A stretch of DNA of 64,000 bases, taken from the NCBI GenBank assembly GCA_963719225.1, contig CAVRAY010000001.1:1664001-1728000 (forward strand). The letters run 5' to 3'. Source of the stretch: Thermoanaerobaculia bacterium (GTDB lineage Bacteria > Acidobacteriota > Thermoanaerobaculia > UBA5066). Below the pieces are notes generated by a model, which was not told the DNA's origin, did no database searches, and worked only from the letters and a program-made list of their open reading frames with translations. The position numbers and the translations under genes are program-made. This document shows, one piece after another, positions 27,417-57,615 of the stretch. Position 1 is the stretch's first letter. Each line of letters starts with the position of its first letter.

Positions 27417-29045
27417 TTGAAAGAGTCGTCAGGTTCCCTCCGGATCCCGCTCCTCCTCGCGGCGGCGGCGGCCGTGCTTTACCTCGTCGCCGCGGCCGGG
27501 CGCGATTTCTGGGCGCCCGACGAGCCCGATTTCGCCGAGCACGTGAGGGAGATGCTCGAGAGGAGAAGCCTCCTCCTGCCCTACCAGAACGGGAAGCCCT
27601 ATTCGGAGAAGCCGATCTTCTTCTACTGGGCGGTCGCGGCGACGACGCCGCTCTCGGGCGGCGACGTGAAACCGCTTGCGACACGCCTGCCTTCCGTCCT
27701 CGCGGGCGCGACGCTCGTCTTTTGCGCGGCCTCTTTTGCCGGCCGGCGCGGGGGAGATCGGGAGGCCCTCGTCGCGGGCGCGGCAACCGCGGTCGCGCCG
27801 ATCGTCTTCTGGCAGTCGCAGTTTCTGCAGGTGGATGCGCTCTTTTCCTGTTTTCTGATGCTCGCGCTTGTTTCGGTGTTTTTCTTAGAAGGTGAAGAGG
27901 GACGGCCCCGGGCGACGGGTTGGCTCTGGGCGCTGCGGGTGGCGCTCGCAGCGGCGGTCCTGACCAAGGGCCCGCTCGCGATCGTCATCCTGGGTCTGGT
28001 CGTCCTCGCCCGTTGCACGATGGCGAGGTCTTTGCGCCTGCTTGGCCGGCTGCAACCCTTTCGAAGCATCCTCGTCTTTCTTCTCCTGGTCGTCCCCTGG
28101 TACTTCTTCGCCGCGCGGGCCGGCGGGCCGGCCTATGCCTACGACCTGGTCGTGAACCAGAACTGGAACCGATTCTTCCGGGCGTTCGATCACATCCAGC
28201 CGTGGTGGTTCTATTGCGAGAGCATCTGGGGGGACTTCTTCCCGTGGACGGCATTGGCGCTCGCGGCGCCCTTCCTCCTCTCGCGCGCGGGCGTGCTTCG
28301 CGAAAGACCCGATCTGCGGTTCGCGACGACGGCCGTCGCCGTGACGTTCGTGTTCCTTTCGCTGTCCGGGTCCAAACAGGGGAAATACCTGCTCGCCGCA
28401 TACCCGTTCGCGGCGGTGATCGTCGCGGCTCTCGCGGGAGAGGCGGAGCGCAGGGCCCAGGCGGGGAAAAGCGGCCTTCTGCGGGTCGTGCGCGGCTGGG
28501 TCGCGTTCGCGGCGGTCCTTCTCTTCCTCGCGGCGGTGGCTCTCGCGCCGGTCATCCGGCGGCTCGCCCCCGAGCAGTTCGGCCTCGTGCCCTTCGGCGC
28601 TATCCCGATCGGCCTCGGCGCCGCCGCGACGATCGCCGTCCTCGTCTGGCGAAAACGCGAAGCGGTTGCCGGACTGCTCGCTCTCGCGGCGACCCTCGCG
28701 GCGGGGGAGGTCGTGGCGGGCGCCGTCGTCTTCCCGGCCATCGACACGCTGAAGACCGGAAGGCCCTTTTACGAACGCCTCCGGCCGCGCGTCTCTCACG
28801 GCGAGCCGCTCGCATACTTCGGCGGAACGTATCGCTGCTATCCCATCCTCGTGCTGAGGCGGAAGACCGAGCACTTCCGGGACGACGTCGCGCTCGCCCA
28901 GTGGCTCGAGAAGACTCCCGGAGGACTCGTCCTCGCCGACGAAAGCGAGCGTCAGCACTGGACGGACGCGCGCCTTTCCCGGCTCGTCGTCCTCGACCGG
29001 CAGCGCGTGGGCAGCGACGAGGCTCTCCTCCTGGGCAGGCCATGA
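27417..29045 (+). CDS. ArnT/PMT-like (GT83) membrane glycosyltransferase
   Basis: WAPDEP, YSEKP, LTKGP, HIQPWWFY, KQGKYLL. Confidence 0.88.
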   Translation: MKESSGSLRIPLLLAAAAAVLYLVAAAGRDFWAPDEPDFAEHVREMLERRSLLLPYQNGKPYSEKPIFFYWAVAATTPLSGGDVKPLATRLPSVLAGATLVFCAASFAGRRGGDREALVAGAATAVAPIVFWQSQFLQVDALFSCFLMLALVSVFFLEGEEGRPRATGWLWALRVALAAAVLTKGPLAIVILGLVVLARCTMARSLRLLGRLQPFRSILVFLLLVVPWYFFAARAGGPAYAYDLVVNQNWNRFFRAFDHIQPWWFYCESIWGDFFPWTALALAAPFLLSRAGVLRERPDLRFATTAVAVTFVFLSLSGSKQGKYLLAAYPFAAVIVAALAGEAERRAQAGKSGLLRVVRGWVAFAAVLLFLAAVALAPVIRRLAPEQFGLVPFGAIPIGLGAAATIAVLVWRKREAVAGLLALAATLAAGEVVAGAVVFPAIDTLKTGRPFYERLRPRVSHGEPLAYFGGTYRCYPILVLRRKTEHFRDDVALAQWLEKTPGGLVLADESERQHWTDARLSRLVVLDRQRVGSDEALLLGRP

Positions 29046-29755
29046 CGTCCCTCCGCGACTTCCTCGCTTTCGAGACAGATCCGGACCGCCACCCCGGCCG
29101 TCACGAGGTCGTGAACGCGACGCTCGAGCGCGGAAGCGAGCGGATCCCGGTCGTCGTCAAGAAGGTGCGGCTCGACCTCCGGCAGCGAATGACGACGCCG
29201 AAGGCCATGCGCTCCTTCGCGACGGCCCGTGCCCTTCTGGCCCGCGCGCTCGACACGCCTGAGCCCCTGGCCGCCGAGGTCGTGGGAGACGAAAGCTGGT
29301 ACGTGGCACGCCGGCTCGAGGGAGCGTCGCAGATCCGCGCCTGGTTCCTGCATCGCGACGACCCGAGGCGCCCCTCCCCGCCGTTGCCGTTTTCGTTCGA
29401 GGAGGTCGTCGCGGCCCTCGGAAGGCTCGGGCGGCGGATGCACGACGCGGGCGTGTTCTTTCGGGACTTCTCCGACGGAAACGTTCTCGTGACGAGCGAC
29501 GCCGGCCGCCTCCGGCTGTGGCTCGTGGACCTGAACCGCGCCCGGGTCGGCGAGGCTCCCGTCGCGCCTCTCTCGCGGTATCGGGACCTCGCGCGTCCGG
29601 GTCTGAACCGGCTCGAGGATCTCAACCTCCTTCTTTCCAGCTACTTCCTGCCCGAACCGCCTCCGTCGCGAGCGGTCCTCGCGGTACGCTGGCTCCGGCG
29701 AAGGGTCGTTTTGTGGGACGATTTCAAGGCCTTTGCGAGACCCTGGAGACGATGA
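29042..29755 (+). CDS. Lipopolysaccharide kinase (Kdo/WaaP/InaA family)
   Basis: MHDAGVFFRDFSDGNVL, LVDLNR. Confidence 0.8.
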   Translation: MTSLRDFLAFETDPDRHPGRHEVVNATLERGSERIPVVVKKVRLDLRQRMTTPKAMRSFATARALLARALDTPEPLAAEVVGDESWYVARRLEGASQIRAWFLHRDDPRRPSPPLPFSFEEVVAALGRLGRRMHDAGVFFRDFSDGNVLVTSDAGRLRLWLVDLNRARVGEAPVAPLSRYRDLARPGLNRLEDLNLLLSSYFLPEPPPSRAVLAVRWLRRRVVLWDDFKAFARPWRR

Positions 29756-29772
29756 AGGCTCGCGCGCATGCC

Positions 29773-29799
29773 GTAAACCGCGGGAGAGGAAAGTGCGTC
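29773..29799 (+). promoter_or_regulatory. Putative ECF-type autoregulatory promoter
   Basis: GTAAAC-N17-CGTC, 8 nt upstream of in-frame GTG 29808. Confidence 0.5.
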
Positions 29800-29807
29800 C
29801 AATCGGC

Positions 29808-30509
29808 GTGAGCGGAACCGCGCTGGCCCCGGTCCTGACTTTTCCCCGTGGAATCGGAGACGAAAGGCACGCTCGCCATGACACTTCCGGAAGACAGGCG
29901 GCGGGATCCGTGAGCCTCGACGAACGCGCGGCCAAGAGGGAGCGCGAGGCCAAGATCCTCACGCGCGTCGTCGCGGGGGACGTGGACGCCTTCGAGTATT
30001 TCGTCGTCACGTACCAGAAGCGGATCACGCGCTTCGTCTACACCCTTCTTCGCGATCCGGCCGACGCCGACGGGATCACGCAGGACATCTTCGTGAAGGC
30101 GTTTCGCGCCCTTCCCGAGTTCCAGGGACAATCGGCTTTCGAGACGTGGCTCACGCGCATCGCGATCAACGCCGTGCGCGACCACATCCGCCGCCGGAAG
30201 CCGGTCTTGCACTTCTCGGAGCTGCGGACCGACCCGGACGACGACGGCCCCGAGCTCCCGGCCGGGTTCGATCCGGCCGACGGCACGTCGCCCGAGCGCG
30301 ACCTCCTGTCCCGCGACATCCGCCGCCGGATCGCCGAGGCGCTCGTCTCTCTCTCGCCGCGCCAGCGATCGGTGTTCGTCATGAAACACTACGAAGAAAA
30401 GTCTATCGCCGAGATCGGGGAAGTCACCGGCCTCGACGAGGGCACGATCAAGTCGCACCTTTTTCGCGCAGCCCGCAAGCTGCGCGAGCGCCTGGAGGAC
30501 CTCCGATGA
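29808..30509 (+). CDS. ECF RNA polymerase sigma factor
   Basis: DADGITQDIFVKAF, FETWLTRIAIN, SIAEIGEVTGLDEGTIKSHLFRA. Confidence 0.92.
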   Translation: MSGTALAPVLTFPRGIGDERHARHDTSGRQAAGSVSLDERAAKREREAKILTRVVAGDVDAFEYFVVTYQKRITRFVYTLLRDPADADGITQDIFVKAFRALPEFQGQSAFETWLTRIAINAVRDHIRRRKPVLHFSELRTDPDDDGPELPAGFDPADGTSPERDLLSRDIRRRIAEALVSLSPRQRSVFVMKHYEEKSIAEIGEVTGLDEGTIKSHLFRAARKLRERLEDLR

Positions 30510-31024
30510 ACCCGAGCCGCCACCTCACCCCCGACGAGATCGTCGACCACGTCTTCCCGGTCAACGCCCGCGCCGGCGCCGACTCCGGGCACCTCGCGAC
30601 GTGCGCGGCCTGCCGGGATCGCGTCGCCGCGCTGCACGACGCGTGGCTCCTCGACCGCGGTGCCGTGAGCGGGGCCGTCGACGACCTGCCCTCCGGCTTC
30701 TGGGAGAGTCAGACCGCGGCGACGATGTCGGCCGTACGCGCCCTCCCCGTCCATTCCGCCGTGAACGAGGTCGGCGTCTTCCCGTCGCGGATGCGCGGCA
30801 TCCTGAGGCATCCGGCCCTCGCTTTCTCGAGCCTCGCCGCGGCCTTGCTCCTCGTCGGCGGGCTTTCACTCCTGCGCTCCGGCTCGACGACGCCTCCCGT
30901 GATGACGGCGGCCGCGACTCCTGCCGCCGTGAACGACGCCTCCGACGACGAGCTGCTCGTCTCGGTCGACCGTGCGCTCGAGGACTCTTCGCTCGCTGGC
31001 CTGGTCGTGGAAGAGACGTTGTGA
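30506..31024 (+). CDS. Anti-sigma factor (zinc-binding HxxxCxxC)
   Basis: HLATCAAC plus single TM segment. Confidence 0.8.
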   Translation: MNPSRHLTPDEIVDHVFPVNARAGADSGHLATCAACRDRVAALHDAWLLDRGAVSGAVDDLPSGFWESQTAATMSAVRALPVHSAVNEVGVFPSRMRGILRHPALAFSSLAAALLLVGGLSLLRSGSTTPPVMTAAATPAAVNDASDDELLVSVDRALEDSSLAGLVVEETL

Positions 31025-31590
31025 ACGGCGCGGTGAGGGGCACGGCGAGACGCGCGCCGAAGGGTGTCGCGAGACTTCTCCCGGCAGCCGCGATCGCGTT
31101 CCTCGCCGCGGCGCCTGCGCGCCCCGCCCGTGCCCAGATGCCGGAGGTGCCTCCGGGCAAATGGTGGAAACGTCCGCTCATCGTCCGGATGCTGAATATC
31201 ACGGCCGATCAGCAGGCGAAGCTGGAGGCCATCTTCTCCCGCCATCGGCGCGAGTTCGTGGATCTCAAAGCCGACGTCGAGCGACGTCGGATCGACGTCG
31301 AGGACCTCGTCGCGAAAAAGGACTCGGACGCCCGAAATGTCTCGGAGGCGGTCGATGCGCTGGAGGTGTCCCGGTTCAAGCTGCGCAAGGCGGCCACCAT
31401 GATGTTTCTCGAGCAGAAGGACGTTCTTTCGGCGTCACAGTGGCAGCAGATCCTCGACAAGCGCGACGAGTGGCGCAGGCAGAGGCAGATGGAAAGACGG
31501 GGAGGGAGCCGGCGCGAGCTTTCACCCGACGAGGAAGCCGGGCCGCGCTCCGGCCGCGAACGCCCGCAACCACCTCCGCAAGAGAAGTAG
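31021..31590 (+). CDS. Spy/CpxP-like periplasmic protein
   Basis: Signal peptide; LNITADQQ and VLSASQW (LTxxQ-like) motifs. Confidence 0.75.
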   Translation: MNGAVRGTARRAPKGVARLLPAAAIAFLAAAPARPARAQMPEVPPGKWWKRPLIVRMLNITADQQAKLEAIFSRHRREFVDLKADVERRRIDVEDLVAKKDSDARNVSEAVDALEVSRFKLRKAATMMFLEQKDVLSASQWQQILDKRDEWRRQRQMERRGGSRRELSPDEEAGPRSGRERPQPPPQEK

Positions 31591-31592
31591 CC

Positions 31593-32453: not shown

Positions 32454-33472
32454 GCCGTCTTCCGCGAAAGGCGCGCCCGCGCCGCGAGGACCGCGAGGAC
32501 GAGGACGCCCGGCACGATCGTGGCGAGCGCCCCCGGCACCCCCGTGTCGCGCTGCATCGCGGAAGAGCCGGCGCCGAGCGCCGCGAAAAGGAGCGCCGAA
32601 GCCGCGGCCGCGAGCGGGTGAGATCCTCCGAGCAGGGCCGCGGCGATGCCGGTGTAGCCGGCGCCCTCGGCGAAGGGATCGTAGAGACGGCCCGTCACCG
32701 CCAGCACCTCGAGGCCTCCCGCGAGGCCGGCGAGCGCGCCGGAGCCCGCGAAGGCGAGGAGCCGAAGGCGGGCGTGGGGAAGGCCGATCGCCCTGGCGGC
32801 TGCCGGGGCGCAGCCCGTCGCGCGCAGCTTCAGGCCCAGCGGCGTCCGCTCGAGGAGGAGCGTTGCGAGGATCGCGAGCGCAAGGGCGATGAGGATCGCG
32901 GCCGTCACGCGGGCGCCGGCGGCGAGGGGTGGGAGGCGCACGGCGTCCGGGAGCGCGCGGCTCTGCGGGTAATCGCCGCCCGGATCCTGCAGCGCGCCGC
33001 GCACGAGACCGCTCACGGCCGCGACGGCGACGAGGTTGAGGAGGATCGTCGACAGCACCTCCGGGACTCCGCGCCGTGCCTCGAGGTACGCGGCCGGGAG
33101 GACCCAGAGCGCGCCCGCGAGCGCCGCCGCTGCGAGGAGTCCGACGCGCGCGGCCAAAGGGCTTCCGTCGAGAAGAGGCCCGATGGCCGCCGAGGCCGCG
33201 GCTCCCGCGAGGAATTGTCCCTCCAGCCCGATGTTCAGGACGCCGGCGCGGAAGGCGAGGCTCGCGCCGACCGCCGTGAGGATGAGCGCGGACGCCCGCG
33301 CGAGCGTCTCACCGAGCGCCGCCCGGGAACCCGCCGCGCCTTCGACGAGGGCACGGAGCGCGTCGAGAGGCGACGCCCCCGCGAGGAGAGCGAGGCCGAC
33401 GAGCGCAGCCGCGGCCGCCGAGACGACGACGGCCACGACCGCGAGACGACGGGCGGTCGAGTTCCGGCTCAT
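32450..33472 (-). CDS. Nucleoside/sugar ABC permease
   Basis: RAGVLNIGLEGQ, EVLSTILLN. Confidence 0.9.
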   Translation of the reverse strand: MSRNSTARRLAVVAVVVSAAAAALVGLALLAGASPLDALRALVEGAAGSRAALGETLARASALILTAVGASLAFRAGVLNIGLEGQFLAGAAASAAIGPLLDGSPLAARVGLLAAAALAGALWVLPAAYLEARRGVPEVLSTILLNLVAVAAVSGLVRGALQDPGGDYPQSRALPDAVRLPPLAAGARVTAAILIALALAILATLLLERTPLGLKLRATGCAPAAARAIGLPHARLRLLAFAGSGALAGLAGGLEVLAVTGRLYDPFAEGAGYTGIAAALLGGSHPLAAAASALLFAALGAGSSAMQRDTGVPGALATIVPGVLVLAVLAARARLSRKTA

Positions 33473-35079
33473 CCTTCGAGCCCGGCCATCAGGCGTCCGA
33501 GCTCGGTGGAGGGCGCTGTCCGCTCGAGTACGGCCGAGAGACGGCCTCGGTAGACGACACGAATCGGCGCGCCGAAGAGCTGGGCTTCGTCGGGATCCGC
33601 CGTAACGACGAGCGCCGCCGTCCCCGAGCGGCACGCGTCGAGGATCCGGATCCTGACCGCGGCGGCGGAGGCGACATCGAGGCCCCTCGTCGGATGGACG
33701 GCGAGAAGAACGACGGGCGGATTCGCGAGCTCGCGCGCGAGCACGGCCTTCTGCTGATTCCCGCCGGAGAGAGAGCCGGCCGGGGCTTCGGGAGAAGCGT
33801 AGCGGACGCCGAACGCGCTCAGCCGCTCCTCGGCATGAGCGCGCATCTTCGCGCGGTCGAGGAAGATGCGGCCTGGAGGATTCGGCAGCGAGAGATTCTC
33901 CGAGAGGGGCAGCGCCGCCACGAGCCCCTCGTCGCGCCTGTCCGCGGGCACGAAAGCTCCCCCACAGGCGCGAAACGCGAGCGGATCGCCCGCGGTCGGG
34001 AGCGGTACCCCGCCGATGTCCACGCGTCCCGAGAACGGCTCGAGCCCCGCGATCGCGCGGGCGATGTCGTCGGCGCCGTTTCCGTCGATCGCGAGGAGGA
34101 CGAGGAGCTCGCCGGGAAGAAGAGAGAAAGAAATTCTTTCTGTTCGGACCGCTCGCGCCTGCTCTGGTCCGAAGCCGCTGACTTCGAGGCTTTTGACAGG
34201 GCGTTGCGCGGCGCTTCGCGCCGCGTGCCTAGAAGGGTGAGTCTTGCTGGTGCGCGTCGGTGTGCCGGAGCGCCTCACGAGCGGCACGTCGCCCTCTTCA
34301 CCCTCTAAGAAAATCTTCTCTTTCTCTTCTTCTTTTCTGCTCCCTCCGATTTCCGCGTTTGCGAGCAGAAGGTTCCCGATCTCCTCACGAGTCGTCTCGC
34401 CGATCAGACAGGTCTTCAACGTCCGGCCCCGCGCGAGGAGCGTCAGCCTGTCGGCGCCTGCGAACACTTCGGCGAGCCGGTGCGTGATGACGACGACGGC
34501 GGCACCGACCTCAGTGCGCTTTCGCAGCGCGGAAAAGAGGGCTGCCGTCTCGTCGGGAGAGAGGACCGCCGTCGGCTCGTCGAGGATCAGGACGTCCGGG
34601 TTGCCGGCGAGGGCGCCCGCGATCTCGATGCGCTGGCGGGTCCCGACGGGCAGCGATTCGGCGCGGGCATCCGCGTCGCCCAGCTCGAGAGCGAACGCCT
34701 GTGCGAGGCGGCCGACGCGCGCGCGCCGCGACCCAGCGGATTCGAAGAATGGCGCCGCGGAATCGAGAAAAGCGAGGTTGTCGGCGACGCTCGCGGCCCC
34801 GATCAGTAGATCGTGCTGCGGCACCAGAACGAGCCCGGCACGGCGGGCGTCGCGCGCGCCGCGAAACGACACCGGGGTCCCCCCTCGCAGGATCTCGCCT
34901 GAATCGGCCGCGAGCCTCCCCGCGGCGATCGACACGAGCGTGGATTTTCCCGCGCCGTTCTCGCCGAGGAGGGCGTGGATCTCTCCGGGAAAGACGACGA
35001 GATCTGCTTCGGAAAGAGCCTGTGTATCGCCGAAGCGCTTCGAGATGCGGCGGAGCTCGAGAGCCGCTCTTCTCGTCAG
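33469..35079 (-). CDS. ABC ATP-binding protein, two NBDs (start approximate)
   Basis: GENGAGKS, LILDEPT, LSGGNQQK, PTRGLD; expanded linker. Confidence 0.9.
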   Translation of the reverse strand: MTRRAALELRRISKRFGDTQALSEADLVVFPGEIHALLGENGAGKSTLVSIAAGRLAADSGEILRGGTPVSFRGARDARRAGLVLVPQHDLLIGAASVADNLAFLDSAAPFFESAGSRRARVGRLAQAFALELGDADARAESLPVGTRQRIEIAGALAGNPDVLILDEPTAVLSPDETAALFSALRKRTEVGAAVVVITHRLAEVFAGADRLTLLARGRTLKTCLIGETTREEIGNLLLANAEIGGSRKEEEKEKIFLEGEEGDVPLVRRSGTPTRTSKTHPSRHAARSAAQRPVKSLEVSGFGPEQARAVRTERISFSLLPGELLVLLAIDGNGADDIARAIAGLEPFSGRVDIGGVPLPTAGDPLAFRACGGAFVPADRRDEGLVAALPLSENLSLPNPPGRIFLDRAKMRAHAEERLSAFGVRYASPEAPAGSLSGGNQQKAVLARELANPPVVLLAVHPTRGLDVASAAAVRIRILDACRSGTAALVVTADPDEAQLFGAPIRVVYRGRLSAVLERTAPSTELGRLMAGLEG

Positions 35080-36088: not shown

Positions 36089-36694
36089 ATGACTTTCGAC
36101 CTCGACGCGACGGCTCGAGAGCGCATCCGCGACTTCGTGAGGCCCCTCTCCGTCGGTCTCGACGGCGTCACGAACTTCGGCTACGTGGAGAGAAGACTGA
36201 GGATTTCGGAGAGGTTCTTAGAAGGTGAAGAAGGGGAGGGAGGCGCTGCGGGCGGCCTGCGGGCCGACCCGAACCGCCTGTTCCTTCTCGCCGCGTTTGC
36301 CGGCCTCCCGTCAGTGCGCCGCATCACCCACGATAGCCGCGAAGAGCTGCTCCTGCGCTCCCTTCACATTCCATTCGAGGAAATCACCTCTCTTTCTCTT
36401 TCTCTTTCCAACCTCGAGTCTTCGCCCGAATCGCCCGAGGAGAAGATCGTCCACGACGCGATGCTCCTCGAGTCCGTGGGCGCATATGGAGTCACCCAGC
36501 TCCTCGTCGCGGGCGCGCGCGAACGGATGACGCTGGCCGAGATGGCGCGGGAGATCCTGGAGAAGATGGAGTCGGCCGTCTTCACGACCGCGGCCGCCCG
36601 GGGCCTGGCGGCCGATCGAGTCGCCTTCGCGACGCTCTTCGCGCGGAAGCTCGCCGAGGAGGCAGCGGAATTCGAGGCCGTCGCGCCGAGGTGA
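36089..36694 (+). CDS. HD-fold-like hypothetical protein (degenerate)
   Basis: EEKIVHDAMLLESVGAYGV resembles the HD-domain C-terminal motif; the HD pair itself is absent. Confidence 0.55.
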   Translation: MTFDLDATARERIRDFVRPLSVGLDGVTNFGYVERRLRISERFLEGEEGEGGAAGGLRADPNRLFLLAAFAGLPSVRRITHDSREELLLRSLHIPFEEITSLSLSLSNLESSPESPEEKIVHDAMLLESVGAYGVTQLLVAGARERMTLAEMAREILEKMESAVFTTAAARGLAADRVAFATLFARKLAEEAAEFEAVAPR

Positions 36695-37414: not shown

Positions 37415-38215
37415 TCAGTCTCCTTTGATCGATCGTCCCGCGTCGACCGAAACGACCTGGCCCGTCATGGAACGATTCTCGAGCACGGCGATGGCGATCT
37501 CCATGAGGTCTTTGACGTCGACTTTTCGCTCGAGAGGCGTCCTGGCGACGAGAGCGGCGACGGTTTCTTCCGGCATGTCGTCCGGGGGCATCACGATGCC
37601 CGGGGCGATCCCGTTCACGCGCACGTCCGGTCCGAGCGCGACGGCGAGGTTCCCGACGAGGACGTTGATCGCGGCCTTCGCGGCTACGTGCGGGATATGC
37701 GAGGGCCAGGCCTGCGTTGCCGCCACGTCGGAGACGAGGAGGATCGACCCCTGCGCCGCGCGAAGCGCCGGCGCCGCGGCCTGAGCCAGGAAGAACGCCG
37801 CGCGGGGGCCGGCGCGAAAGACGGCCTCCCAGTCGGAGAGCGTCACCGAAGAAAAGGGCTTCGGAATCCAGGGCGACGCGGCGTGGACGAGAGCGTCGAG
37901 GCGGGGAGAAGAGGGATGAAGAAGCGAAGGCGAAGAGGAAGAAAAAAGAGACGAAGAGAAGATTTCTTCGAATAGTTTGAGGGGCGCGTCGTCGGCGGCG
38001 AGATCGGCTCGGAACGCTTCGGCGCGGGCTCCCTCTTCCTTTCTAAGAAAATCTACTGCGCGACCTGCCGCGTCGGCATCGCTTCTGTAGGAAAGAGCCA
38101 GCGAATAGCCGCTTCTCGCGAGCGCCTTCGCGAACTCGAACCCGAGCCGCTTCGCGCCGCCCGTCACGAGGGCGACCCTCTCGACGGTCTTCGCTTCCCT
38201 CTTCGTGTCCCTCAC
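37415..38215 (-). CDS. SDR oxidoreductase (pteridine reductase/FolM-like)
   Basis: ALVTGGAKRLG, VRVNGIAPG. Confidence 0.85.
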   Translation of the reverse strand: MRDTKREAKTVERVALVTGGAKRLGFEFAKALARSGYSLALSYRSDADAAGRAVDFLRKEEGARAEAFRADLAADDAPLKLFEEIFSSSLFSSSSPSLLHPSSPRLDALVHAASPWIPKPFSSVTLSDWEAVFRAGPRAAFFLAQAAAPALRAAQGSILLVSDVAATQAWPSHIPHVAAKAAINVLVGNLAVALGPDVRVNGIAPGIVMPPDDMPEETVAALVARTPLERKVDVKDLMEIAIAVLENRSMTGQVVSVDAGRSIKGD

Positions 38216-45091: not shown

Positions 45092-45916
45092 GTGATGGCT
45101 CACTCAGCGGGCCGTGACGCGCTCCCCGAGCCGGCCCTCGCGGCCGGGGGGGAGGAGCGTTCTCCCGCCGGGGCGGATCCCGAAAAGCGCCGGCGCATCC
45201 TGGACGCCGCCGTCCGGACGTTCGGCCGGCGGGGATTCCACGAGGCCCGAATCGCGGAGATCGCGGCCGCGGCGAAGGTGGCCGAGGGCACCGTCTACCT
45301 CTATTTCCGCAACAAGGAGGACCTCCTCGGCGTCGTCTTCGACGAGTCGATGGACGAGGTCCTCGAGAAGGGGCGCGCGCTCGCGCGCACGAAAGGTCCG
45401 GCCGGAGAGCGGCTCACGGCGCTCGTGGACCTCCATCTCCAGTTCATCGGATCGGACCGCGATCTCGCGTCCGTTTTCCAGATCGAGCTGAGGCGGAGCG
45501 CGCGGCTCGTCGAACGCTTCTCGCGCAGCAAGCTCGTCGAGTATTTCCGCCTCCTCGGCGACGTCCTGCGCGACGGCATCGCGCGCGGCGAGTTCCGCAA
45601 GGATCTCGATCCGCGCCTCGCCGTCAGGATCCTCTTTGGCGCCGCGGACGAAATCCTCTCGGAGTGGCTGCTGTCGGGGGAGAAGAAGCCGATCGCGGAT
45701 GCACGTCAACTGGTGGGAACGCTTTTAGACGGGTTTGCTGATGAAGATTCTTTGAAAAGGAAGACTTCAGCGGGCGAGGCCCGGGCGCGCCGAAAAACGC
45801 AGCAGCTTCCCGGCGCGCACCCTCGAAATTCACCCTTCAAAGCACGCGCCGAAGGCGCGAACAGCGGCACGCGAAACGACAACATCGCCCTCAGGCGCAG
45901 GAGCAAACCCCAGTGA
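45092..45916 (+). CDS. TetR family regulator (FadR/YsiA-like) with C-terminal extension
   Basis: ILDAAVRTFGRRGF...VAEGTVYLYFRNKEDL; heads the beta-oxidation operon. Confidence 0.9.
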   Translation: MMAHSAGRDALPEPALAAGGEERSPAGADPEKRRRILDAAVRTFGRRGFHEARIAEIAAAAKVAEGTVYLYFRNKEDLLGVVFDESMDEVLEKGRALARTKGPAGERLTALVDLHLQFIGSDRDLASVFQIELRRSARLVERFSRSKLVEYFRLLGDVLRDGIARGEFRKDLDPRLAVRILFGAADEILSEWLLSGEKKPIADARQLVGTLLDGFADEDSLKRKTSAGEARARRKTQQLPGAHPRNSPFKARAEGANSGTRNDNIALRRRSKPQ

Positions 45917-47169
45917 GCAAAACCGCATACGTCGTTCACGGAGCCCGGACGCCCTACGCGCGCGCCGGCACCGACTTCGCTGGCGTGTCGGCCGTCGACC
46001 TCGGCCGCACGGCCGCCGTCGAGGCGATGGCCCGCGCGGACGTCGAGCCCGCCGCGATCGACCAGGTCATCTTCGGCAACATCGCGACGCCCGTCGATGC
46101 CGCGAACATCGCGCGCATCATCGCGCTCCGCGCGGGGGTGCCGAAGGAGAAGCCGGCGCACTCGGTCTCGCGCAACTGCGCCTCCGGCATCGAGTCCGTC
46201 GTCGAGGCCGCGCGCCTCATCGCGACGGGCGAGGCGGAAGTCCTCCTCGCGGGCGGCGTCGAGAACATGACGCAGATACCGTTCCTCTACCGCGAGGGCG
46301 TCAAGGAAGTCTTCACGAAAGCCGGCATGTCGAAGACGGCGGGCGAAAAGGTGTCGGCGCTCTCGAAGATGCCCTGGAAGGACCTCTTCAACCCCGTGAT
46401 CGGCCTCAAGCAGGGCCTGACGGACCCCGTGTGCGACCTCGGCATGGGGGACACCGCCGAGATCCTCGCGAAGGAGGGGCACATCACGCGCGAGGCGCAG
46501 GACGCCTTCGCGCTGCGCTCGCACCACCGCGCCACGGCGGGACGTGCGCGCCTGGCCGAGGAGATCGTGCCGGTACCGGTCCCGCCGGACTACGACCGCG
46601 TCCTCACGATCGACAACGGCGTGCGCGAGAACCAGACGATGGAGGCTCTCGCGAAGCTGAAGCCCTTCTTCGACCGGAAGTTCGGAACGGTCACGGCGGG
46701 CAACTCGTCCCAGATCACGGACGGCGGCGCGGCCGTCGTCGTCGCCTCCGAGGAATACGTGACGAAGCATGGGTTGAAGCCTCTCGGCCGGATCACCGGC
46801 TGGGGCTTCGCGGGCCTCGAGCCCGAGCGCATGGGTCTCGGGCCGTCGCGCTCGACGCCGATCGCGCTGAAGCGGGCCGGCCTCTCGATGAAGGACGTCG
46901 GCCTCGTCGAGATCAACGAGGCGTTCGCCGCGCAGGTCCTCGCGAATCTCGACGCGTTCGCGAAGTCTCCCGAGCTCGGAGAGATCGCGGACGAGAACCT
47001 CAACGTGAACGGCGGCGCGATCGCACTCGGTCACCCGGTCGGAAGCTCGGGCACGCGCCTCATCCTGACGCTCCTGCTCGAGATGCGCCGCCGCAAGGTC
47101 GCGCACGGCCTCGCGACGCTCTGCGTCGGGGGCGGGCAGGGCGCGTCGATCCTCCTGGAGGCGGTCTGA
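45913..47169 (+). CDS. fadI: Acetyl-CoA C-acyltransferase (thiolase)
   Basis: RNCASG, NEAFA, GHPVG, CVGGG. Confidence 0.9.
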   Translation: MSKTAYVVHGARTPYARAGTDFAGVSAVDLGRTAAVEAMARADVEPAAIDQVIFGNIATPVDAANIARIIALRAGVPKEKPAHSVSRNCASGIESVVEAARLIATGEAEVLLAGGVENMTQIPFLYREGVKEVFTKAGMSKTAGEKVSALSKMPWKDLFNPVIGLKQGLTDPVCDLGMGDTAEILAKEGHITREAQDAFALRSHHRATAGRARLAEEIVPVPVPPDYDRVLTIDNGVRENQTMEALAKLKPFFDRKFGTVTAGNSSQITDGGAAVVVASEEYVTKHGLKPLGRITGWGFAGLEPERMGLGPSRSTPIALKRAGLSMKDVGLVEINEAFAAQVLANLDAFAKSPELGEIADENLNVNGGAIALGHPVGSSGTRLILTLLLEMRRRKVAHGLATLCVGGGQGASILLEAV

Positions 47170-49388
47170 TGTCCACGCTCGTCGACGAATCGATTCCTGC
47201 CACGGCACCGGCCGGCTCGCTTTCGCCCTTTCGGCTCTCGGTCGAGCCGGACGGCCTCGCGCTTCTCGTCTTCGACACGCCCGGCGAAAAGGTGAACAAG
47301 TTCTCGACGGCGGTGATGAGGGAATTCGAGCGCGTGATCGACGGCCTCGCGGCGCGCACCGACGTGAGGGCGCTCCTCCTTCTCTCGGCGAAGCCGGGGA
47401 TCTTCATCGCCGGCGCGGACGTGAACGAGATCGCGAAGGCCGACCAGAACGCGGACCCGGAGATGATCCGGGGCGGCCACCGGACGTTCAACAAGCTCGC
47501 GAACCTGCCGTATCCCACGGTCGCCGCGATCAGCGGCGCCTGCGTGGGCGGCGGCTGCGAGACGGCTCTTTCGATGGACTGGCGGCTCGCGTCCGACTCG
47601 CCGAAGACCCAGATCGGCCTTCCGGAGGTCAAACTGGGCATCCTGCCGGCGTGGGGCGGCACGACGCGCCTTCCGCGCATGATCGGCCTCGCGAACGCCA
47701 TCGACGTCATTCTCGGGGGGAAGGTCCTCGACGCGAAGCGGGCGAAGAAAATCGGCCTCGTGGATGAGGTCGTCCCGGAGGCGATCCTCGAGGAGTGGGC
47801 GAAGTCGTTCGCGCGCGGGAAGTTTGGGAGCCGGAAACGCTCGAACGCGGGCGCGGGCGGCGCTCCGGCGCGCGTGCGCGAGCCGAAGCTGACGGAGAAG
47901 CTCCTCGAGGGGCCGGGCAAGGGCCTCGTCTTCTCGAAGGCGCGCCAGGCGGTCCTGAAGGAGACGAAGGGCCATTATCCGGCGCCGCTCACGGCGCTCG
48001 GCGTCGTCGAGAAGGGGTTCGGCGAAGACTTCACGAAGGCGCTCGAGCTCGAGGTCGAAGGGGTCGGATCGCTCATCGGCACGCCGGTCATGCGCAGTCT
48101 CATGGGCCTTTTCTTCCGGATGGAAGAGGTCAAGAAGGAGACGGGCGTCGAGGCTCTCGGGGCGCCGGGGGCCGGCGTCAAGCCGCGGAAGATCGTGCGC
48201 GTGGGCGTCCTCGGCGCCGGCGTCATGGGAGGCGGCATCGCCCAGCTCGCGGCCGACAAGGGCTATCCGACGCGCATGAAGGACATCAAGGCCGATGCGC
48301 TGGCGCTGGGATTCGCGCAGGCGGCGCGCATCTGGAAGGAGCAGCTCAAGAAGCGCCGCATGACCCGCGCCGATTTCGCGAGGAAGATGGCGTTCCTCAG
48401 CGGGTCGCTCGAGTACGCGGGCTTCGAGGGCTGCGACATCACGATCGAGGCGGTCCTCGAGAAAATGACCGTCAAGCAGGCGGTCCTCGCGGACTGGGAG
48501 CGCGTCGCACCGGCGAACGCGATTTTCGCCTCCAACACCTCGACTCTTCCGATCACCGAGATCGCGTCGAAGGCGGCGCACCCCGAGCGCGTCGTGGGAA
48601 TGCACTTCTTCAATCCGGTGAACAAGATGCCTCTCGTCGAGGTCATCTACGGCGCGAAGACCGACCCCGAGGTGACGGCGACGATCTTCGACCTCGCGAA
48701 GAAGCTGGGGAAGACGCCGGTCGTCGTGAAGGACTCGCCCGGCTTCCTCGTGAACCGCATCCTCAGCCCCTACATCGGCGAATCGGTGCGTCTCCTCGTC
48801 GAAGGCAACTCCATGGAGTCCGTCGACAAGGCGATGCGGACCTTCGGGATGCCGGTCGGACCGATCGAGCTCCTCGACGACGTCGGAATCGACGTCGCGG
48901 CGAAAGCCGGCGGGACCATGGCGGCCGCGTTCCCGGAGCGCATGCCCGCGGACCCGGCACTCGAGAAGCTCGTCGAAGCCGGGCGGCTCGGGCGGAAGGC
49001 GAAGAAGGGATTTTATTTCTACGAAAGGGAAAGAAGGGGTGGCCCGGACCCGAACGCGTATCGCGATCTCGGCCTCTCAACACCTTCTAAGAATCTGAAT
49101 CTTTCTTCTTCCGTGATCCAGGAGCGTCTCGTCCTTCCCATGATCAACGAAGCCGCGTTCTGCCTGTCCGAGGGCATCGTCGCGAGCCCCGCGAAGCTCG
49201 ACTTGGCGATGATCTTCGGCACGGGCTTCCCGCCCTTCCGCGGTGGCCTGTGCGCATACGCGGACTCGCTGGGCGCCAGGGCGGTCGTCGAGGGCCTCGA
49301 GAAGCTCGCGAGGGTAAAGGGCGAACGCTTCAGCCCGGCCCCGCGCCTCGTCGACATGGCAAGACAAGGGAAGAGGTTCTTCGAATGA
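47169..49388 (+). CDS. fadJ: Fatty-acid oxidation complex alpha subunit (hydratase/3-hydroxyacyl-CoA dehydrogenase)
   Basis: FIAGAD, GGGCE, GAGVMGGG, GMHFFNPV, GFPPFRGG. Confidence 0.9.
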   Translation: MSTLVDESIPATAPAGSLSPFRLSVEPDGLALLVFDTPGEKVNKFSTAVMREFERVIDGLAARTDVRALLLLSAKPGIFIAGADVNEIAKADQNADPEMIRGGHRTFNKLANLPYPTVAAISGACVGGGCETALSMDWRLASDSPKTQIGLPEVKLGILPAWGGTTRLPRMIGLANAIDVILGGKVLDAKRAKKIGLVDEVVPEAILEEWAKSFARGKFGSRKRSNAGAGGAPARVREPKLTEKLLEGPGKGLVFSKARQAVLKETKGHYPAPLTALGVVEKGFGEDFTKALELEVEGVGSLIGTPVMRSLMGLFFRMEEVKKETGVEALGAPGAGVKPRKIVRVGVLGAGVMGGGIAQLAADKGYPTRMKDIKADALALGFAQAARIWKEQLKKRRMTRADFARKMAFLSGSLEYAGFEGCDITIEAVLEKMTVKQAVLADWERVAPANAIFASNTSTLPITEIASKAAHPERVVGMHFFNPVNKMPLVEVIYGAKTDPEVTATIFDLAKKLGKTPVVVKDSPGFLVNRILSPYIGESVRLLVEGNSMESVDKAMRTFGMPVGPIELLDDVGIDVAAKAGGTMAAAFPERMPADPALEKLVEAGRLGRKAKKGFYFYERERRGGPDPNAYRDLGLSTPSKNLNLSSSVIQERLVLPMINEAAFCLSEGIVASPAKLDLAMIFGTGFPPFRGGLCAYADSLGARAVVEGLEKLARVKGERFSPAPRLVDMARQGKRFFE

Positions 49389-49453
49389 GGGAGACCGGGG
49401 TTTTCTTCTATTCACTTTCTAAGAAATTCTGATTTGTGCTGAGGGGAGCCGTC

Positions 49454-51238: not shown

Positions 51239-52263
51239 GGAAACCGGGAATAGAGATTTCTGCGAATGAAAGAACGGGCCGCCGCGGCGCGCCGCGGCGC
51301 TCTTCCTCTTCACCATTCATAGAAACTCTTTCTCTTCCGACTCCCTTCCCCGTGGGACCCGTCAACGTTCACGTGATCCTGCGCGATCCCATCACGTTGA
51401 TCGATTCAGGACCTCTCACCGAGGAAGCCTGGGGTGCGCTCAAAGCCGGTCTCGCCGGCCTCGGCCTCGGAATCTCCGACGTGAAGCGCGTCCTGCTGAC
51501 GCACGGCCATCAGGACCATTACGGCCTCGCCGAGAAGATAGCCGGCGCGTCGGGGGCGAGGCTCTACGGCGGGAGGCTCGACCGCCGAAATTTCCGGCAG
51601 GAAAGGAGCCACGGCCTGCTCCTCGAGGACATGGCCCGGGCGGGGTTCGGGCTTCTGCCGCGCCTCGCGGTCGTCGCTTCCGTCACCGCCGTGGACCGCT
51701 TCGCGAAGCCGCTCGAAGCGTGGGACGAGCTCGCGGGGGGAGAGACCATGCCGGGAGACGGCTGGTCCGTCGTCGTGCGGTCGACGCCCGGCCACACGCC
51801 GGGCAGCCTCACGTTTTCGATTCCGGAGGCGGGGGTCGTCTTCACGGGAGACACCGTCCTGAAGGAGATCACGCCGAACGCGGTCGTCGACGAGGATCCC
51901 GAGAAGGCCGGGCGCCCTTTTCGCAGCGTCACGCGATATTTCGAGACGCTCGACGAGCTCGGCCGGACGAGCGGCGACGCGACTCTTCTCACGGGACACG
52001 GCGCGCCGGTCACGGACTGGTTCGCCCATCGTAGGACCCTCGACCGGCATCACGGACTCCGCATCGGGCAGATCGAACGGGAGCTGTCGAAGGGACCGGC
52101 GGCGGTATGCGACCTCGTGGCCGCGATCTTCCCCCGCGTGAAGACACTCGAAATCTTCCTCGCCTACAGCGAGATCCTCGGCTTCCTCATGTATCTCGAA
52201 GATGAGAAGCGCGTCGTGAAGCTCGCCGAGGAGACGCGGAACCGCTACCGGCTGGCTGGCTGA
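51229..52263 (+). CDS. MBL-fold metallo-hydrolase (start uncertain)
   Basis: THGHQDH, TPGHT, FTGD, TGHG. Confidence 0.88.
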   Translation: MVLGKPGIEISANERTGRRGAPRRSSSSPFIETLSLPTPFPVGPVNVHVILRDPITLIDSGPLTEEAWGALKAGLAGLGLGISDVKRVLLTHGHQDHYGLAEKIAGASGARLYGGRLDRRNFRQERSHGLLLEDMARAGFGLLPRLAVVASVTAVDRFAKPLEAWDELAGGETMPGDGWSVVVRSTPGHTPGSLTFSIPEAGVVFTGDTVLKEITPNAVVDEDPEKAGRPFRSVTRYFETLDELGRTSGDATLLTGHGAPVTDWFAHRRTLDRHHGLRIGQIERELSKGPAAVCDLVAAIFPRVKTLEIFLAYSEILGFLMYLEDEKRVVKLAEETRNRYRLAG

Positions 52264-53910: not shown

Positions 53911-53996
53911 AGAAGCGCTGAAGAAGAGTTGAACCCGCGGCGAGGGCGGGACGCGGCGCGCGCCGTGTCCCGCTGAGCGGCTTCTGGAAAGAGCAC

Positions 53997-54707
53997 ATGG
54001 CCCGACTCACGAAGCAACAGATGAAGACCGATCAGCTCCAGCACGCGCTGACGGATGCGCGCGACTATGTCGTGACGCACCGGTCGGAGACGACCCGCTG
54101 GGCTCTCATCGCGGGCGGCGCGGTCCTGGTCGTCGGCGGCCTCTGGGGTGGACTCGTCCTGAGAAATGGCCGTCTCGCGGCGCGCCTCTCGTCCGCGCTC
54201 GCGCTGTTCGATGCGCCGCTCGCGTCCGACGCGGCTCCCCCTCCCGGCGCGCGCGTCTTCAAGGACGTCGCAGAACGAACGGCGGCGGCGAAGGCGGAGC
54301 TGGCGTCCCTCTTGAAGGACGCGCCCTCTTCCGCGGCCGGACGCGCGGCGGCGGTCGTCGTGCTTTCGCTCGACGGTCCGAAAGCGGCGACGGGCGCGAA
54401 CCTCGACGCCGCAAAGGCCTTCGCGAAGTCCGAATGCGGCACGGTCGCGGCCGGAGTCGCGGCCGTCGCGGCGATCGACGCCGAGGCGGCGGCCGGCCGT
54501 CCGAAGGAAGCGCTCGAGACGGCGAAGAAGTATCTCGAGGCCAGCGACTCACCCGTGTCGAAAGACGTCCTGGTTTTCACGATGGCACGTCTCTACGAGC
54601 AGACGGGTCAAAATGTCGAGGCGAAGAGCTTTTATCAGCGCCTCGTGACGGATTTTCCGGATTCCCCTCTCCGGACCGACGCCCAGCAGAAGCTCGCGAA
54701 CCTCTGA
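53997..54707 (+). CDS. TPR membrane protein (YfgM-like)
   Basis: N-terminal TM; C-terminal YQRLVTDFPDS TPR. Confidence 0.7.
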   Translation: MARLTKQQMKTDQLQHALTDARDYVVTHRSETTRWALIAGGAVLVVGGLWGGLVLRNGRLAARLSSALALFDAPLASDAAPPPGARVFKDVAERTAAAKAELASLLKDAPSSAAGRAAAVVVLSLDGPKAATGANLDAAKAFAKSECGTVAAGVAAVAAIDAEAAAGRPKEALETAKKYLEASDSPVSKDVLVFTMARLYEQTGQNVEAKSFYQRLVTDFPDSPLRTDAQQKLANL

Positions 54708-54713
54708 CGCGCC

Positions 54714-55886
54714 GTGAAGCGTCGCGTCATCGTCGTCGTCTGCGATGGCCTCGGCGTCGGAACGGCGCCGGACGCGGCGCTCTTTGGAGACGAGGGCAAG
54801 AAGACGCTCCAGCATGTCCTTCGCGACGGAACGCCGCATCTTCCGAACCTGGCGAGCCTCGGCCTCCTGCACACGATGTATGAAGACGCCCCTGCCGGTT
54901 TGCCCGCGCCCGCGGGCGCTTTCGGGCGCCTCGCCGAGGCGTCTGCCGGGAAGGACACGACGACCGGTCATTGGGAGCTGATGGGGCTCACCCTGGACGT
55001 CGCCTTTCCCCTTTATCCGGATGGGTTTCCTCCCGAGGTCGTCGAGCCGTTCGAGAAGGCGATCGGGCGGAAGGTCCTGTGGAACAAGCCGGCGTCGGGG
55101 ACGACGATCCTCGAGCAGCTCGGCGACGAGCACGTGAGGACGGGCCGGCCCATCCTCTACACGTCGGGCGACTCCGTCTTCCAGATCGCGGCCCACGAGG
55201 GCGTCGTCCCGATCGAGACCCTCTACGCGTGGTGCGCGGCGGCGCGCGGAATCCTGAAACCTCCGCACCAGGTCGGCCGCGTCATCGCCCGGCCCTTTGT
55301 CGGGGCGAACGGAAAATACCAGCGTACGCATCGCCGAAAGGACTTCACGGTTCCGCCCTCCGGCGAAACGCTTCTCGACCGCGCGAGTTCGCGCGGCCTC
55401 GAGGTGCACGCCCTCGGCAAGATCGAGGACATTTTTTCGGGGCGGGGGATCGCCACGGCGGTGCACACCGTCTCGAACCGCGACGGCATCGAGAAGACCA
55501 TCTCCGCCATCCGCGATCGCGACGACGACTTCGTCTTCACGAACCTCGTCGACTTCGACACCAAGTACGGGCACCGCAACGACGTCGTCGGCTACGCGAA
55601 GTGTCTCGAGGAGCTCGACTTCTTCATGCCCGAGATGGTGGAGTCTCTTCGTCCGGCCGACCTCTTGATGCTCTCGGCGGACCACGGGGGCGACCCCTCC
55701 GACACGTCCACCGATCACACGCGGGAATACGTCCCGATGGTCGCGGCTGGCCCGGGCGTGGTCGGCGGAGCCGACGTCGGCACGCGGAGGACGTTCGCCG
55801 ATCTCGGCGCCACCGCCGCCGAGCACCTCGGAATCCCGCCCGTCGGCGGCACGAGCTTCCTCGGCGCGATCTTTCCGGCGGCCTGA
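54714..55886 (+). CDS. deoB: Phosphopentomutase
   Basis: GKDTTTGHWE, RVIARPF, NLVDFDTKYGHR, ADHGGDP, DHTREY. Confidence 0.95.
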   Translation: MKRRVIVVVCDGLGVGTAPDAALFGDEGKKTLQHVLRDGTPHLPNLASLGLLHTMYEDAPAGLPAPAGAFGRLAEASAGKDTTTGHWELMGLTLDVAFPLYPDGFPPEVVEPFEKAIGRKVLWNKPASGTTILEQLGDEHVRTGRPILYTSGDSVFQIAAHEGVVPIETLYAWCAAARGILKPPHQVGRVIARPFVGANGKYQRTHRRKDFTVPPSGETLLDRASSRGLEVHALGKIEDIFSGRGIATAVHTVSNRDGIEKTISAIRDRDDDFVFTNLVDFDTKYGHRNDVVGYAKCLEELDFFMPEMVESLRPADLLMLSADHGGDPSDTSTDHTREYVPMVAAGPGVVGGADVGTRRTFADLGATAAEHLGIPPVGGTSFLGAIFPAA

Positions 55887-55981
55887 CCTCGAGCAGGCGG
55901 GCGCGACGTACGACCCGCCTTCTCCTCCTATACTGCGTCCAGCTCTCACATGACGATAGCGCCGACACGGGGAGGCTCCTG

Positions 55982-56419
55982 ATGGGCGATGCCGTGGATT
56001 CCAGCACCCTCGACCTCTTCGAGAAGAGCCTCGCGCGGTGCGAGGCGCGGCCCGACTTTCTCGACCTCTTCTACGGGAGGTTCATGGCCTCGTCGCCCGA
56101 GGTGGCGGCGAAGTTTGCCGGAACGGATTTCGTGCGGCAAAAACGTGCGCTGAAGGCCTCTTTCCATCATCTCCTTCTCGTCGCGAACGACCGCAAGCAG
56201 GGTCCGGACGCGTACCTTTCGGACGTCGCGGCGCGGCATGGATCAGGGCAGCTTGCGATCGGCGCCAGCCTCTACGATTTCTGGCTCGACAGTCTCCTCG
56301 CCACGGTGAGGGAGTGCGATCCGGAGTGGTCCCTCGAGATCGACCATGCATGGGAAGCCGTGATGATGGTCGGCATCCACTACCTCTGCCAGAGTTACCA
56401 CGGCCGGCACGAGAAGTGA
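55982..56419 (+). CDS. Single-domain globin
   Basis: FLDLFYGRFMASSPEVAAKF, VAARH, YDFWLDSLL. Confidence 0.85.
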   Translation: MGDAVDSSTLDLFEKSLARCEARPDFLDLFYGRFMASSPEVAAKFAGTDFVRQKRALKASFHHLLLVANDRKQGPDAYLSDVAARHGSGQLAIGASLYDFWLDSLLATVRECDPEWSLEIDHAWEAVMMVGIHYLCQSYHGRHEK

Positions 56420-57615
56420 CGGCCGTTCTCGCCGTCATTCTGTTTCTGTGGCTTTTCCGCGCGTCAAACGTCGCTCTGAGCTTCGCCCTGATTCCGCGGA
56501 TCGCGCCGGCGCCTCGGCGAGAGCCCGGCGCGCCTTTCGTGTCGATCGTCGTCCCGGCGCGAAACGAGGAGCGCGACGTCGAGGGCGCAACGCGCAGCAA
56601 GTGCGCTCAGGATGATCCCTGTTTCGAAGTCGTCGTCGTGGACGACCGGTCCTCGGACGGCACGCGCCGCATCCTCGCGGGCCTCGAGCGAGAGCTCCCG
56701 GAGGTCCTCCGGGTCGTCGACGGGGTCGAGCCGCCGGTGGACTGGCTCGGAAAGCCGCATGCGCTCCACGAAGGCGCTCGCGCGGCCCGGGCGTCGCGGC
56801 CCCACGACTGGCTCGTCTTCTCGGACGCGGACGTGTACTTCGAGCCCGACCTCCTCGCCCGGTCCCTCGCACATGCGAATCGGCATGGGCTCGAGTTCCT
56901 GGCTCTTCTGCCGACCCTCGAGGCGAAGACCTTCGGCGAGAAGCTCATGGTCTCGACCGTCCCCGCCGCGGCGTTCTGCTACTTCCCCGGCTGGCTCATG
57001 AACGTCCCGTCCGCCCGTCGTTTCGGAGGCGGGGGAGGGATTTTCAATCTGATCCGGCGGGACCTCTTCGACCGCATTGGCGGGCATGAAGCGCTCAGGG
57101 CTTCGGTCGTCGACGACATCCAGCTCGGCCGCAATGCCCGCATGGGCGGAGGGCGGACGGGAATCGCGATCGCGATCGACTCGGTGCGAGTCCGCATGTA
57201 CCACGGATTCGGCGAGATCGTGAAGGGACTGGAGAAGAACGCGTACTTCGCCATGCTCGGCAGCCTCCCTTTGGCGGTGTTCGTCCTAAGCGAGTTTTTC
57301 TTAGAAGGTGAATTGCCCTTCGCGGTCCTTCTCGGCGGCGTGCTCGAACGGGCGCTGGCCCGCGGCGCCGCCGTGGCCCCTGCTTTCTTCACCTTCAAAG
57401 AAGTCCTTCTTTCTCTCTCCATCGTCGCGCTGACGATCCTCGTCCGCGGCGCCGTCGACCTTCGCCTCCGCCTGGGCCTCTTCTCGACTCTCCTGCATCC
57501 CCTTTGGGTCGCGGCTCTCTCGTGGATCTTCGGCCGCTCGGCCTGGGTCAACGGCGTTCTCCATCGCAATGAATGGAGAGGACGGGTTCGGGACGCGCGC
57601 GCCCTTCGGCCCTGA
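56416..57615 (+). CDS. Glycosyltransferase family 2 (CrtQ/HpnB-like)
   Basis: VPARNEE, DDRSSDGT, WLGKPHA, FSDAD, RMY. Confidence 0.88.
   Translation: MTAVLAVILFLWLFRASNVALSFALIPRIAPAPRREPGAPFVSIVVPARNEERDVEGATRSKCAQDDPCFEVVVVDDRSSDGTRRILAGLERELPEVLRVVDGVEPPVDWLGKPHALHEGARAARASRPHDWLVFSDADVYFEPDLLARSLAHANRHGLEFLALLPTLEAKTFGEKLMVSTVPAAAFCYFPGWLMNVPSARRFGGGGGIFNLIRRDLFDRIGGHEALRASVVDDIQLGRNARMGGGRTGIAIAIDSVRVRMYHGFGEIVKGLEKNAYFAMLGSLPLAVFVLSEFFLEGELPFAVLLGGVLERALARGAAVAPAFFTFKEVLLSLSIVALTILVRGAVDLRLRLGLFSTLLHPLWVAALSWIFGRSAWVNGVLHRNEWRGRVRDARALRP

Follow-up and report, generated by a model that had tools for sequence, protein, structure and literature searches.

The genome-wide DNA signals known in bacteria are single sites, such as uptake sequences, FtsK orienting polarized sequences (KOPS), and matS, or extragenic hairpins, such as REPINs (repetitive extragenic palindromic sequence doublets that form hairpins). 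In the present study, we analyzed a signal in the genome of a Thermoanaerobaculia bacterium (4.75 Mb, 68% GC, two contigs named C1 and C2) that consists of asymmetric sites of approximately 30 bases arranged in facing pairs. It was first noted in a 64-kb stretch (C1:1,664,001–1,728,000), hereafter referred to as the window. We concluded that this motif is real, selected at the DNA level, paired, unphased, graded toward the terminus, and restricted to a genus. The paired sites are probably docking sites for one sequence-specific, genus-restricted chromosome-organizing protein, to which we assign a probability of roughly 55%.

REPINs, miniature inverted-repeat transposable elements (MITEs), architecture imparting sequences (AIMS)/KOPS, and matS each fail at least one defining test as an identity for this signal. 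Similar to AIMS/KOPS, it is shared by a clade and rises in abundance toward the terminus on both arms; however, AIMS are strand-biased octamers, whereas the present sites are approximately 30 bp long, lack strand bias, and form facing pairs (PMC5993296). A repeated terminus-associated site with a proposed protein-bound organizer is also found in matS/MatP. However, matS is 13 bp long with 23 copies within 800 kb (PMC3330122), whereas approximately 900 asymmetric paired sites follow a chromosome-wide gradient here and are not confined to the terminus (8.7 per 100 kb even near the origin). Uptake signal sequences and DNA uptake sequences (USS/DUS) likewise occur in hundreds of clade-specific copies, lie within genes in all frames, and are scarce in foreign DNA; the present sites differ in their facing pairs 65–240 bp apart inside genes, their terminus gradient, and the large amino-acid change associated with them (PMC2817400). 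REPINs are inverted doublets with modal spacings (71 and 110 bp; 74–77 bp here) that are accompanied by singlets, but they lie outside genes, form hairpins with compensatory changes, and are linked to a REP-associated tyrosine transposase (RAYT), whereas two thirds of the present sites are in genes, with no hairpin signal and no linked Y1 transposase (PMC3116915). In contrast to MITEs, no interior is conserved between copies (26 of 291 spacers are repeated). As in the parS/ParB and Noc-binding site (NBS)/Noc systems, a ParB paralogue is present, here adjoining dif; the odd-length core, asymmetric flanks, and paired arrangement are unlike parS and NBS (PMC7383237). The comparisons with USS/DUS and with parS/NBS concern sequence features. 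No description of the signal was found in the open-access literature searched.

Genes were called with our own hexamer model (4,150 genes; borders are approximate). The host genome is labeled G000 and its relatives G003, G019, G049, G050, G055, and G071, while loci carry L numbers. The commonest non-homopolymer 10-mer of the genome was TTTCTTAGAA, with 189 copies observed versus 17 expected. A motif matrix was seeded on the genome-wide flanks of TTCTTAGAA, independently of the sites picked by eye in the preliminary description of the window, and a site was defined as a match of at least 12 bits. In the matrix, the lead is rich in purines, the core reads TTCTT(A/C)GAA, and the tail reads (G/A)G(G/T)GAA. 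It identified 899 sites genome-wide, versus 53 and 65 in Markov-3 and Markov-6 simulations, respectively. Unconstrained motif refinement drifted to A-rich and AT-rich sequence and was dropped. Over-representation against a codon-preserving shuffle, which had been proposed as a check, was clear: 422 in-gene sites scored at least 20 bits versus 24–32 in three synonymous-codon shuffles. The preliminary description had listed 18 cores, all of which were located in the sequence on the strands given in Table 1. Fifteen of these 18 hand-picked arms reached 12 bits and the arm at 45748 was marginal. The arms at 34226 and 45836 failed because a GC-rich hairpin occupies their outer flank; on core and tail alone, they ranked 27th and 16th, respectively, in the window. 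A GC-rich mini-hairpin with a three-base loop was observed in place of the purine-rich lead at window 34208–34224 and 45845–45859 as well as at L017, L050, and L104, which are unrelated sites.

The convergent arrangement noted in the window was reproduced with objectively called sites. Within 200 bp, 292 couples faced each other (+/-) versus 4 that diverged (-/+), with 47 +/+ and 40 -/- couples. Adjacent facing pairs (n=291) accounted for 582 of the 899 sites, with a median spacing of 108 bp and a 5th–95th percentile range of 65–235 bp. Moreover, a weak facing partner was present for 103 of 200 strong unpaired sites, versus 12 with such a partner on the far side. In contrast, the reported 10-bp phasing was lost genome-wide. 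Twenty-six of the 291 pairs had repeated spacers, mostly in paralogous kinase genes, and were removed before the spacing and covariation tests; 129 of 251 non-repeated spacings fell at 10n-4 to 10n, which is half, as by chance, and the modulo-10 distribution was flat. The power of the spacing periodogram did not exceed 1.4 at 10–10.8 bp, and its highest peak was near 28.5 bp (power 6.3). Among spacings of 70 bp or less, 23 of 27 fell at 10n-4 to 10n, in a post hoc subset consisting mostly of spacings of 68–70 bp. The distribution has a minimum near 65 bp, a mode at 74–77 bp, and a long tail. A peak at 93 bp was rejected as a paralogous kinase family. A tandem array of approximately nine long Ser/Thr kinase genes lies at C1:2,293,328–2,319,611, and most of these genes share one 93-bp pair located in their N-terminal kinase region.

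The pairs have a preferred unit of approximately 75–76 bp with unlike inner tails. Spacings of 74–77 bp were found in 35 of 70 independent loci (perfect-arm pairs from relatives), within a searched range of 58–88 bp, where assuming uniformity as the null is naive. In 71 units of 73–78 bp, the inner tails differed, with GGTGAATG facing GGGTGAGTG, and none of 25 shuffles was as good. GC content inside these units varies by position and peaks near 20, 27, and 38, which is not a clean 10-bp wave, and spacers are GC-richer than their flanks (0.72 vs 0.62–0.67). The spacing of orthologous pairs shifts by arbitrary amounts between relatives. Their position is kept: of 53 loci located by flanks alone, 32 had a site in the host genome and 20 had a pair, where the background density is 0.23 sites per kb. 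Immediately upstream of recA is a canonical 75-bp pair (C1:2,856,113/2,856,188), which is conserved in relatives (L011, L068, L086, and L099).

Since the arms are inverted copies, they might base-pair to form RNA stems or DNA cruciforms. Arm-to-arm likeness in 251 pairs gave z values of 0.8 (lead), -0.5 (tail), -0.5 (inner), and 2.4 (core). The arms thus match the consensus each on their own account and not one another, except for a slight core likeness, with slight covariation at core positions 1 and 5. The inner tails were less alike than by chance. Spacers folded no better than shuffles (z=-0.1±0.1 for 127 genic and 0.0±0.2 for 52 intergenic spacers), and the duplex energy between arms (-21.1) showed no gain over permuted partners (-20.8±0.4). 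There was no RNA-strand asymmetry in transcribed-strand G-U usage (allowed 560 vs disallowed 520), and Rfam gave no match. A hairpin is excluded because the arms do not covary and the spacers do not fold; as far as the sequence allows, this extremely improbable reading is refuted.

At a threshold of 14 bits, 563 of 838 sites were in genes, 260 were intergenic, and 15 were on borders. The in-gene sites used every one of the six frames and every gene position. The peptides FLEGEE, FLRKEE, and STPSKNL, previously cited as products of different frames and strands, were confirmed; of the rare TTA codons, which the motif had been said to force, 75 of the 270 in the genome were inside sites. This independence of frame, strand, and gene position, together with the absence of arm covariation, spacer folding, and RNA-strand asymmetry, bears out the earlier view that the motif acts at the DNA level.

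Sites in genes appear to have arisen in place. An alignment of 30 fadJ orthologues, including six outgroup orthologues, placed its pair on colinear sequence, and 61% of 14 conserved codons in the arms ended in A or T versus 9% of 497 others. At the pair spanning the end of fadJ (49377/49417), the second arm is present in some relatives and absent in others. The 172 in-gene pairs yielded 39 comparisons with reciprocal-best outgroup orthologues from motif-free relatives, with some pairs compared with two or three genomes. Whether sites are substitutions or insertions, a question raised in the preliminary description, has a mixed answer: 22 comparisons were colinear, 13 had short additions, 3 had insertions, and 1 was terminal. 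In the colinear set, amino-acid identity was 0.35 and 0.36 in the two arms, 0.59 between them, and 0.65 elsewhere.

The position of sites relative to the origin and terminus was also informative. The origin is marked by dnaA on C2 at 326 kb with a perfect parS alongside (326–334 kb), and the terminus by dif at C1:2,037,575, near the skew maximum. Site density climbs toward dif on each replichore, from 8.7 to 31.5 per 100 kb (approximately 3.6-fold; Spearman 0.61, 94 bins); the contig joins are inferred, and either join gives 8.7 rising to 31–35 sites per 100 kb. This gradient is present in genic (6.6 to 20.4) and intergenic (20.7 to 95.4) sequences. Strand bias relative to dif was absent among paired (250 pointing to vs 256 pointing from dif) and unpaired (117 vs 139) sites. 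The gradient was repeated in G055 (2.4, 1.7, and 1.3 per 100 kb, p=0.016), and sites were depleted at the origin in G003. In the host genome, dif is flanked by two pairs, and its spacer is the sole one with four sites among 179 terminus-region spacers. Of the genus members, 16 of 20 had a site no more than 270 bp from dif, as did 3 of 7 members of the sister genus; the 17 loci from other genera had none. This crowding is partly explained because dif sits in a terminus-region spacer. Several insertion-sequence-like end copies, which are unrelated to the motif, are clustered near the terminus at C1:2,197,263–2,208,285 and elsewhere. The genome of G019 spans 3.9 Mb, but dif (107.8 kb) and dnaA (838 kb) are separated by only 730 kb on its C2, and sites become sparser at dnaA, which may reflect a rearrangement or mis-assembly.

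The absence of the motif from the integrated element of the window, as previously noted, was confirmed, with no site in window 1–27,800 and 15 in the remainder. A molecular drive has to be considered here, in which an uptake, packaging, or recombination machine would favor fragments with two facing sites, leading to their accumulation without a chromosomal function. A putative ComEA-like protein was observed, and near-identical junction units are found in distant subclades at tuf-rpsJ. The signal is also clade-restricted, uses all frames, overprints proteins, and is missing from the integrated element, as are uptake sequences (PMC2817400). However, that report describes little amino-acid constraint, whereas the arms halve identity here. 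A drive also gives no evident reason for the symmetric rise toward dif or the crowding there, and leaves the 75–76-bp mode inside genes unaccounted for. We consider it to be unlikely as the explanation.

The signal is not class-wide: it occurs only in one Thermoanaerobaculia genus and in some members of the sister genus. The paired exact pattern occurred at a minimum of 119 loci over GTDB species genomes, and all of the 80 matches listed were from Thermoanaerobaculia or Acidobacteriota. The exact 12-mer was present in 28 of 28 genus members, in 7 of 8 sister-genus members at 1–16 copies, and in none of 26 other family members. With a relaxed 12-mer, 17 genus members among 301 class genomes had 54–235 copies and G049 had 28, while the other 283 had 4 or fewer, similar to controls. 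The sister genus is intermediate, with 28 versus 1 exact copies in two near-complete genomes. Over 400 kb, the counts for G050 were 7 sites and 2 pairs, versus 110 sites and 39 pairs. A word search that detects the motif at z=12 in the host found no variant motif in 420 kb of G071 or 400–420 kb of G050, and viral contigs gave no paired match. The motif arose on one short branch.

A single protein reader probably recognizes the arms and would bind both arms of a pair at once. Binding would bend the intervening GC-rich DNA or wrap it, and bound pairs may help the compaction or segregation of the late-replicated half of the chromosome. The looping, wrapping, or chromosome-organizing protein proposed in the preliminary description is therefore retained in part: the gradient and the crowding at dif support an organizing role, whereas helical phasing, its argument for looping, was refuted.

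Several points weigh against a docking protein. A rigid short loop normally shows helical phasing, and none is present here. The gradient was present in four of five gene classes divided by GC content at third codon positions and flat in the highest fifth, and G019 departs from it, with a high density of sites up to 90 kb from dnaA (among the first 100 of 133 matches). Related genomes do not count as independent evidence. The low identity of the arms may partly come from sites settling in tolerant segments rather than overwriting them. The searches made found no reader protein: MatP (PF06303) was detected in none of five genomes (the Escherichia coli control was detected), no histone fold was found in the five genomes, and SMC and the dif-side ParB are also present in motif-free genera. 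Other features hint at copying. Residues are gained in 16 of the 39 in-gene comparisons. Intergenic units are present or absent as whole blocks of approximately 120–200 bp with ragged AG-rich ends, and remnants are sometimes left. Outer flanks are built from several recurrent discrete words, such as TCTGCAAA, for which 12 of its 26 genome copies are in flanks, and lead and tail similarities are linked approximately threefold (91 vs 32±7 on permutation). These flank words and this linkage are left unexplained by paired docking.

A REPIN- or MITE-like mobile unit of approximately 130 bp, which would have spread in the ancestor of the genus and left sites as copies, remnants, or domesticated ends, fits the whole blocks between genes, flank words, and linkage as well as the modal length, unlike arms, and an inner word common to some units. 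However, the linkage is confounded because site strength may explain it. A further copy elsewhere in the genome exists for only 26 of 291 spacers, mostly those in paralogous kinase genes, and the spacers of the 71 units of 73–78 bp share no oriented consensus (18 of 25 shuffles did as well). Spacers in genes are ancestral coding sequence, and no target duplication or sharp end was found among the filled and empty alignments listed. Y1 (IS200/RAYT-type) transposases number 0 in the host genome and were found in 4 of 28 genus members versus 17 of 17 members of a motif-free genus. Among 30 Y1 loci, one had a pair. Sequencing runs contain 0.18 or less of the words and contigs are from relatives; examined for inversion, excision, or splicing, the joints over pair regions read as divergence. 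A mobile unit appears to be quite improbable as the source of the signal.

Returning to a docking protein, candidate readers were examined. HU/IHF paralogues (mostly four in the genus and mostly three elsewhere) did not cleanly match motif presence, and small basic proteins and genes missing between syntenic neighbors yielded no reader candidate in a comparison that covered part of two outgroup genomes. The core, as TTTC-N3-GAA, resembles the TTTC-N4-GAAA frame of parS, as seen in the origin parS. A second parA-parB operon adjoins dif (C1:2,037,865–2,039,524; L198), with pairs just downstream, and occurs in all ten family genera. Its ParB may be the reader and the pairs a dispersed terminus centromere. 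Six of 300 ungapped columns separate the motif-bearing from the motif-free groups, and two are equivalents of positions 179 and 201, which are described as specificity positions of Caulobacter ParB (PMC7383237). However, these are mild substitutions (K to R, T/S to A) that were noticed after looking, and the recognition helix is unchanged in all ten genera. G071 has the protein, yet the 420 kb around its dif contain neither a site nor any other facing word. Furthermore, motif-free genera retain a palindrome of another kind next to dif. This 17-bp palindrome, CC(T/G)NA-N5-TN(A/C)GG, lies 15 bp after dif (C1:2,037,610) in most family members. Three copies precede what we take to be a lexA-like gene (C1:1,590,215–1,590,297) and two precede an Lrp-like gene (679,325 and 679,356); it is not clearly present before recA, and a LexA box and a ParB site are both candidate readings. 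The dif-side ParB is a weak lead because this separate palindrome persists in motif-free genera and recurs before the lexA-like gene, and we regard its role as the reader as highly unlikely.

The features of the window are summarized in Table 1. Two radical SAM/SPASM genes (window 213–2413) are located just outside the integrated element. Elsewhere on C1, a G/T and homopolymer low-complexity stretch (54,900–61,700) looks like a long-read assembly artefact.

Table 1. Paired sites and the integrated element in the 64-kb window (core starts with strands; scores are for the plus and minus arms in this order unless stated)
Feature	Window position	Spacing or size	Context and scores
Integrated element at tRNA-Arg	2708..16877 (start also given as 2651)	approximately 14 kb	Tyrosine recombinase 2689-3960; direct repeat of the tRNA-Arg end at 2708 and 16858; site-free control
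Facing pair 27882(+)/28060(-)	27870..28080	178 bp	Inside ArnT-like gene 27417-29045; 28.8 and 14.2 bits; colinear with G050 orthologue
Strong arm 34303(-) with weak facing arm 34226(+)	34214..34323	77 bp	Inside ATP-binding cassette (ABC) ATPase gene 33469-34935; 37.7 (strong) and -14.1 (weak) bits; weak arm has a GC-hairpin outer flank and 6.0 bits on core and tail
Facing pair 36215(+)/36374(-)	36203..36394	159 bp	Inside 201-amino-acid gene 36089-36694 (no NCBIfam family matched); 25.3 and 20.0 bits
Facing pair 37964(+)/38041(-)	37952..38061	77 bp (modal spacing)	Inside short-chain dehydrogenase/reductase (SDR) gene 37415-38215; 24.7 and 30.4 bits; classed as colinear with G050 orthologue
Weak pair 45748(+)/45836(-)	45736..45856	88 bp	C-terminal extension of TetR/FadR-like gene 45095-45916; 10.5 and -4.2 bits; core and tail 14.5 and 12.4
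Facing pair 49017(+)/49085(-)	49005..49105	68 bp	Inside fadJ 47169-49388; arisen by substitutions on colinear sequence
Facing pair 49377(+)/49417(-)	49365..49437	40 bp	Spans fadJ stop and following spacer; 17.9 and 34.9 bits
Facing pair 51258(+)/51316(-)	51246..51336	58 bp	Intergenic; 24.0 and 25.2 bits
Facing pair 57298(+)/57394(-)	57286..57414	96 bp	Inside HpnB-like glycosyltransferase gene 56416-57615; 28.2 and 34.9 bits; classed as partial insertion versus G050

The present results have a consequence for annotation: the peptides FLEGEE, LLRK, and SPSKK in these proteomes mirror a DNA signal, not protein function. Since the motif arose on one short branch, with an intermediate sister genus and motif-free relatives, the search for its reader can draw on comparative genomics, and candidates can be assayed in vitro. 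We tentatively envision a sequence-programmed chromatin unit, in which a lineage-specific clamp on two unlike facing sites, possibly the terminus-linked ParB, might wrap GC-rich DNA of at least approximately 75 bp at hundreds of locations, graded from the origin to dif, with selection rewriting conserved proteins. If true, these bacteria would use a grammar of chromosome organization that differs from known signals, in which two facing sites that do not base-pair have a preferred length, scale with distance from the origin, and override proteins.

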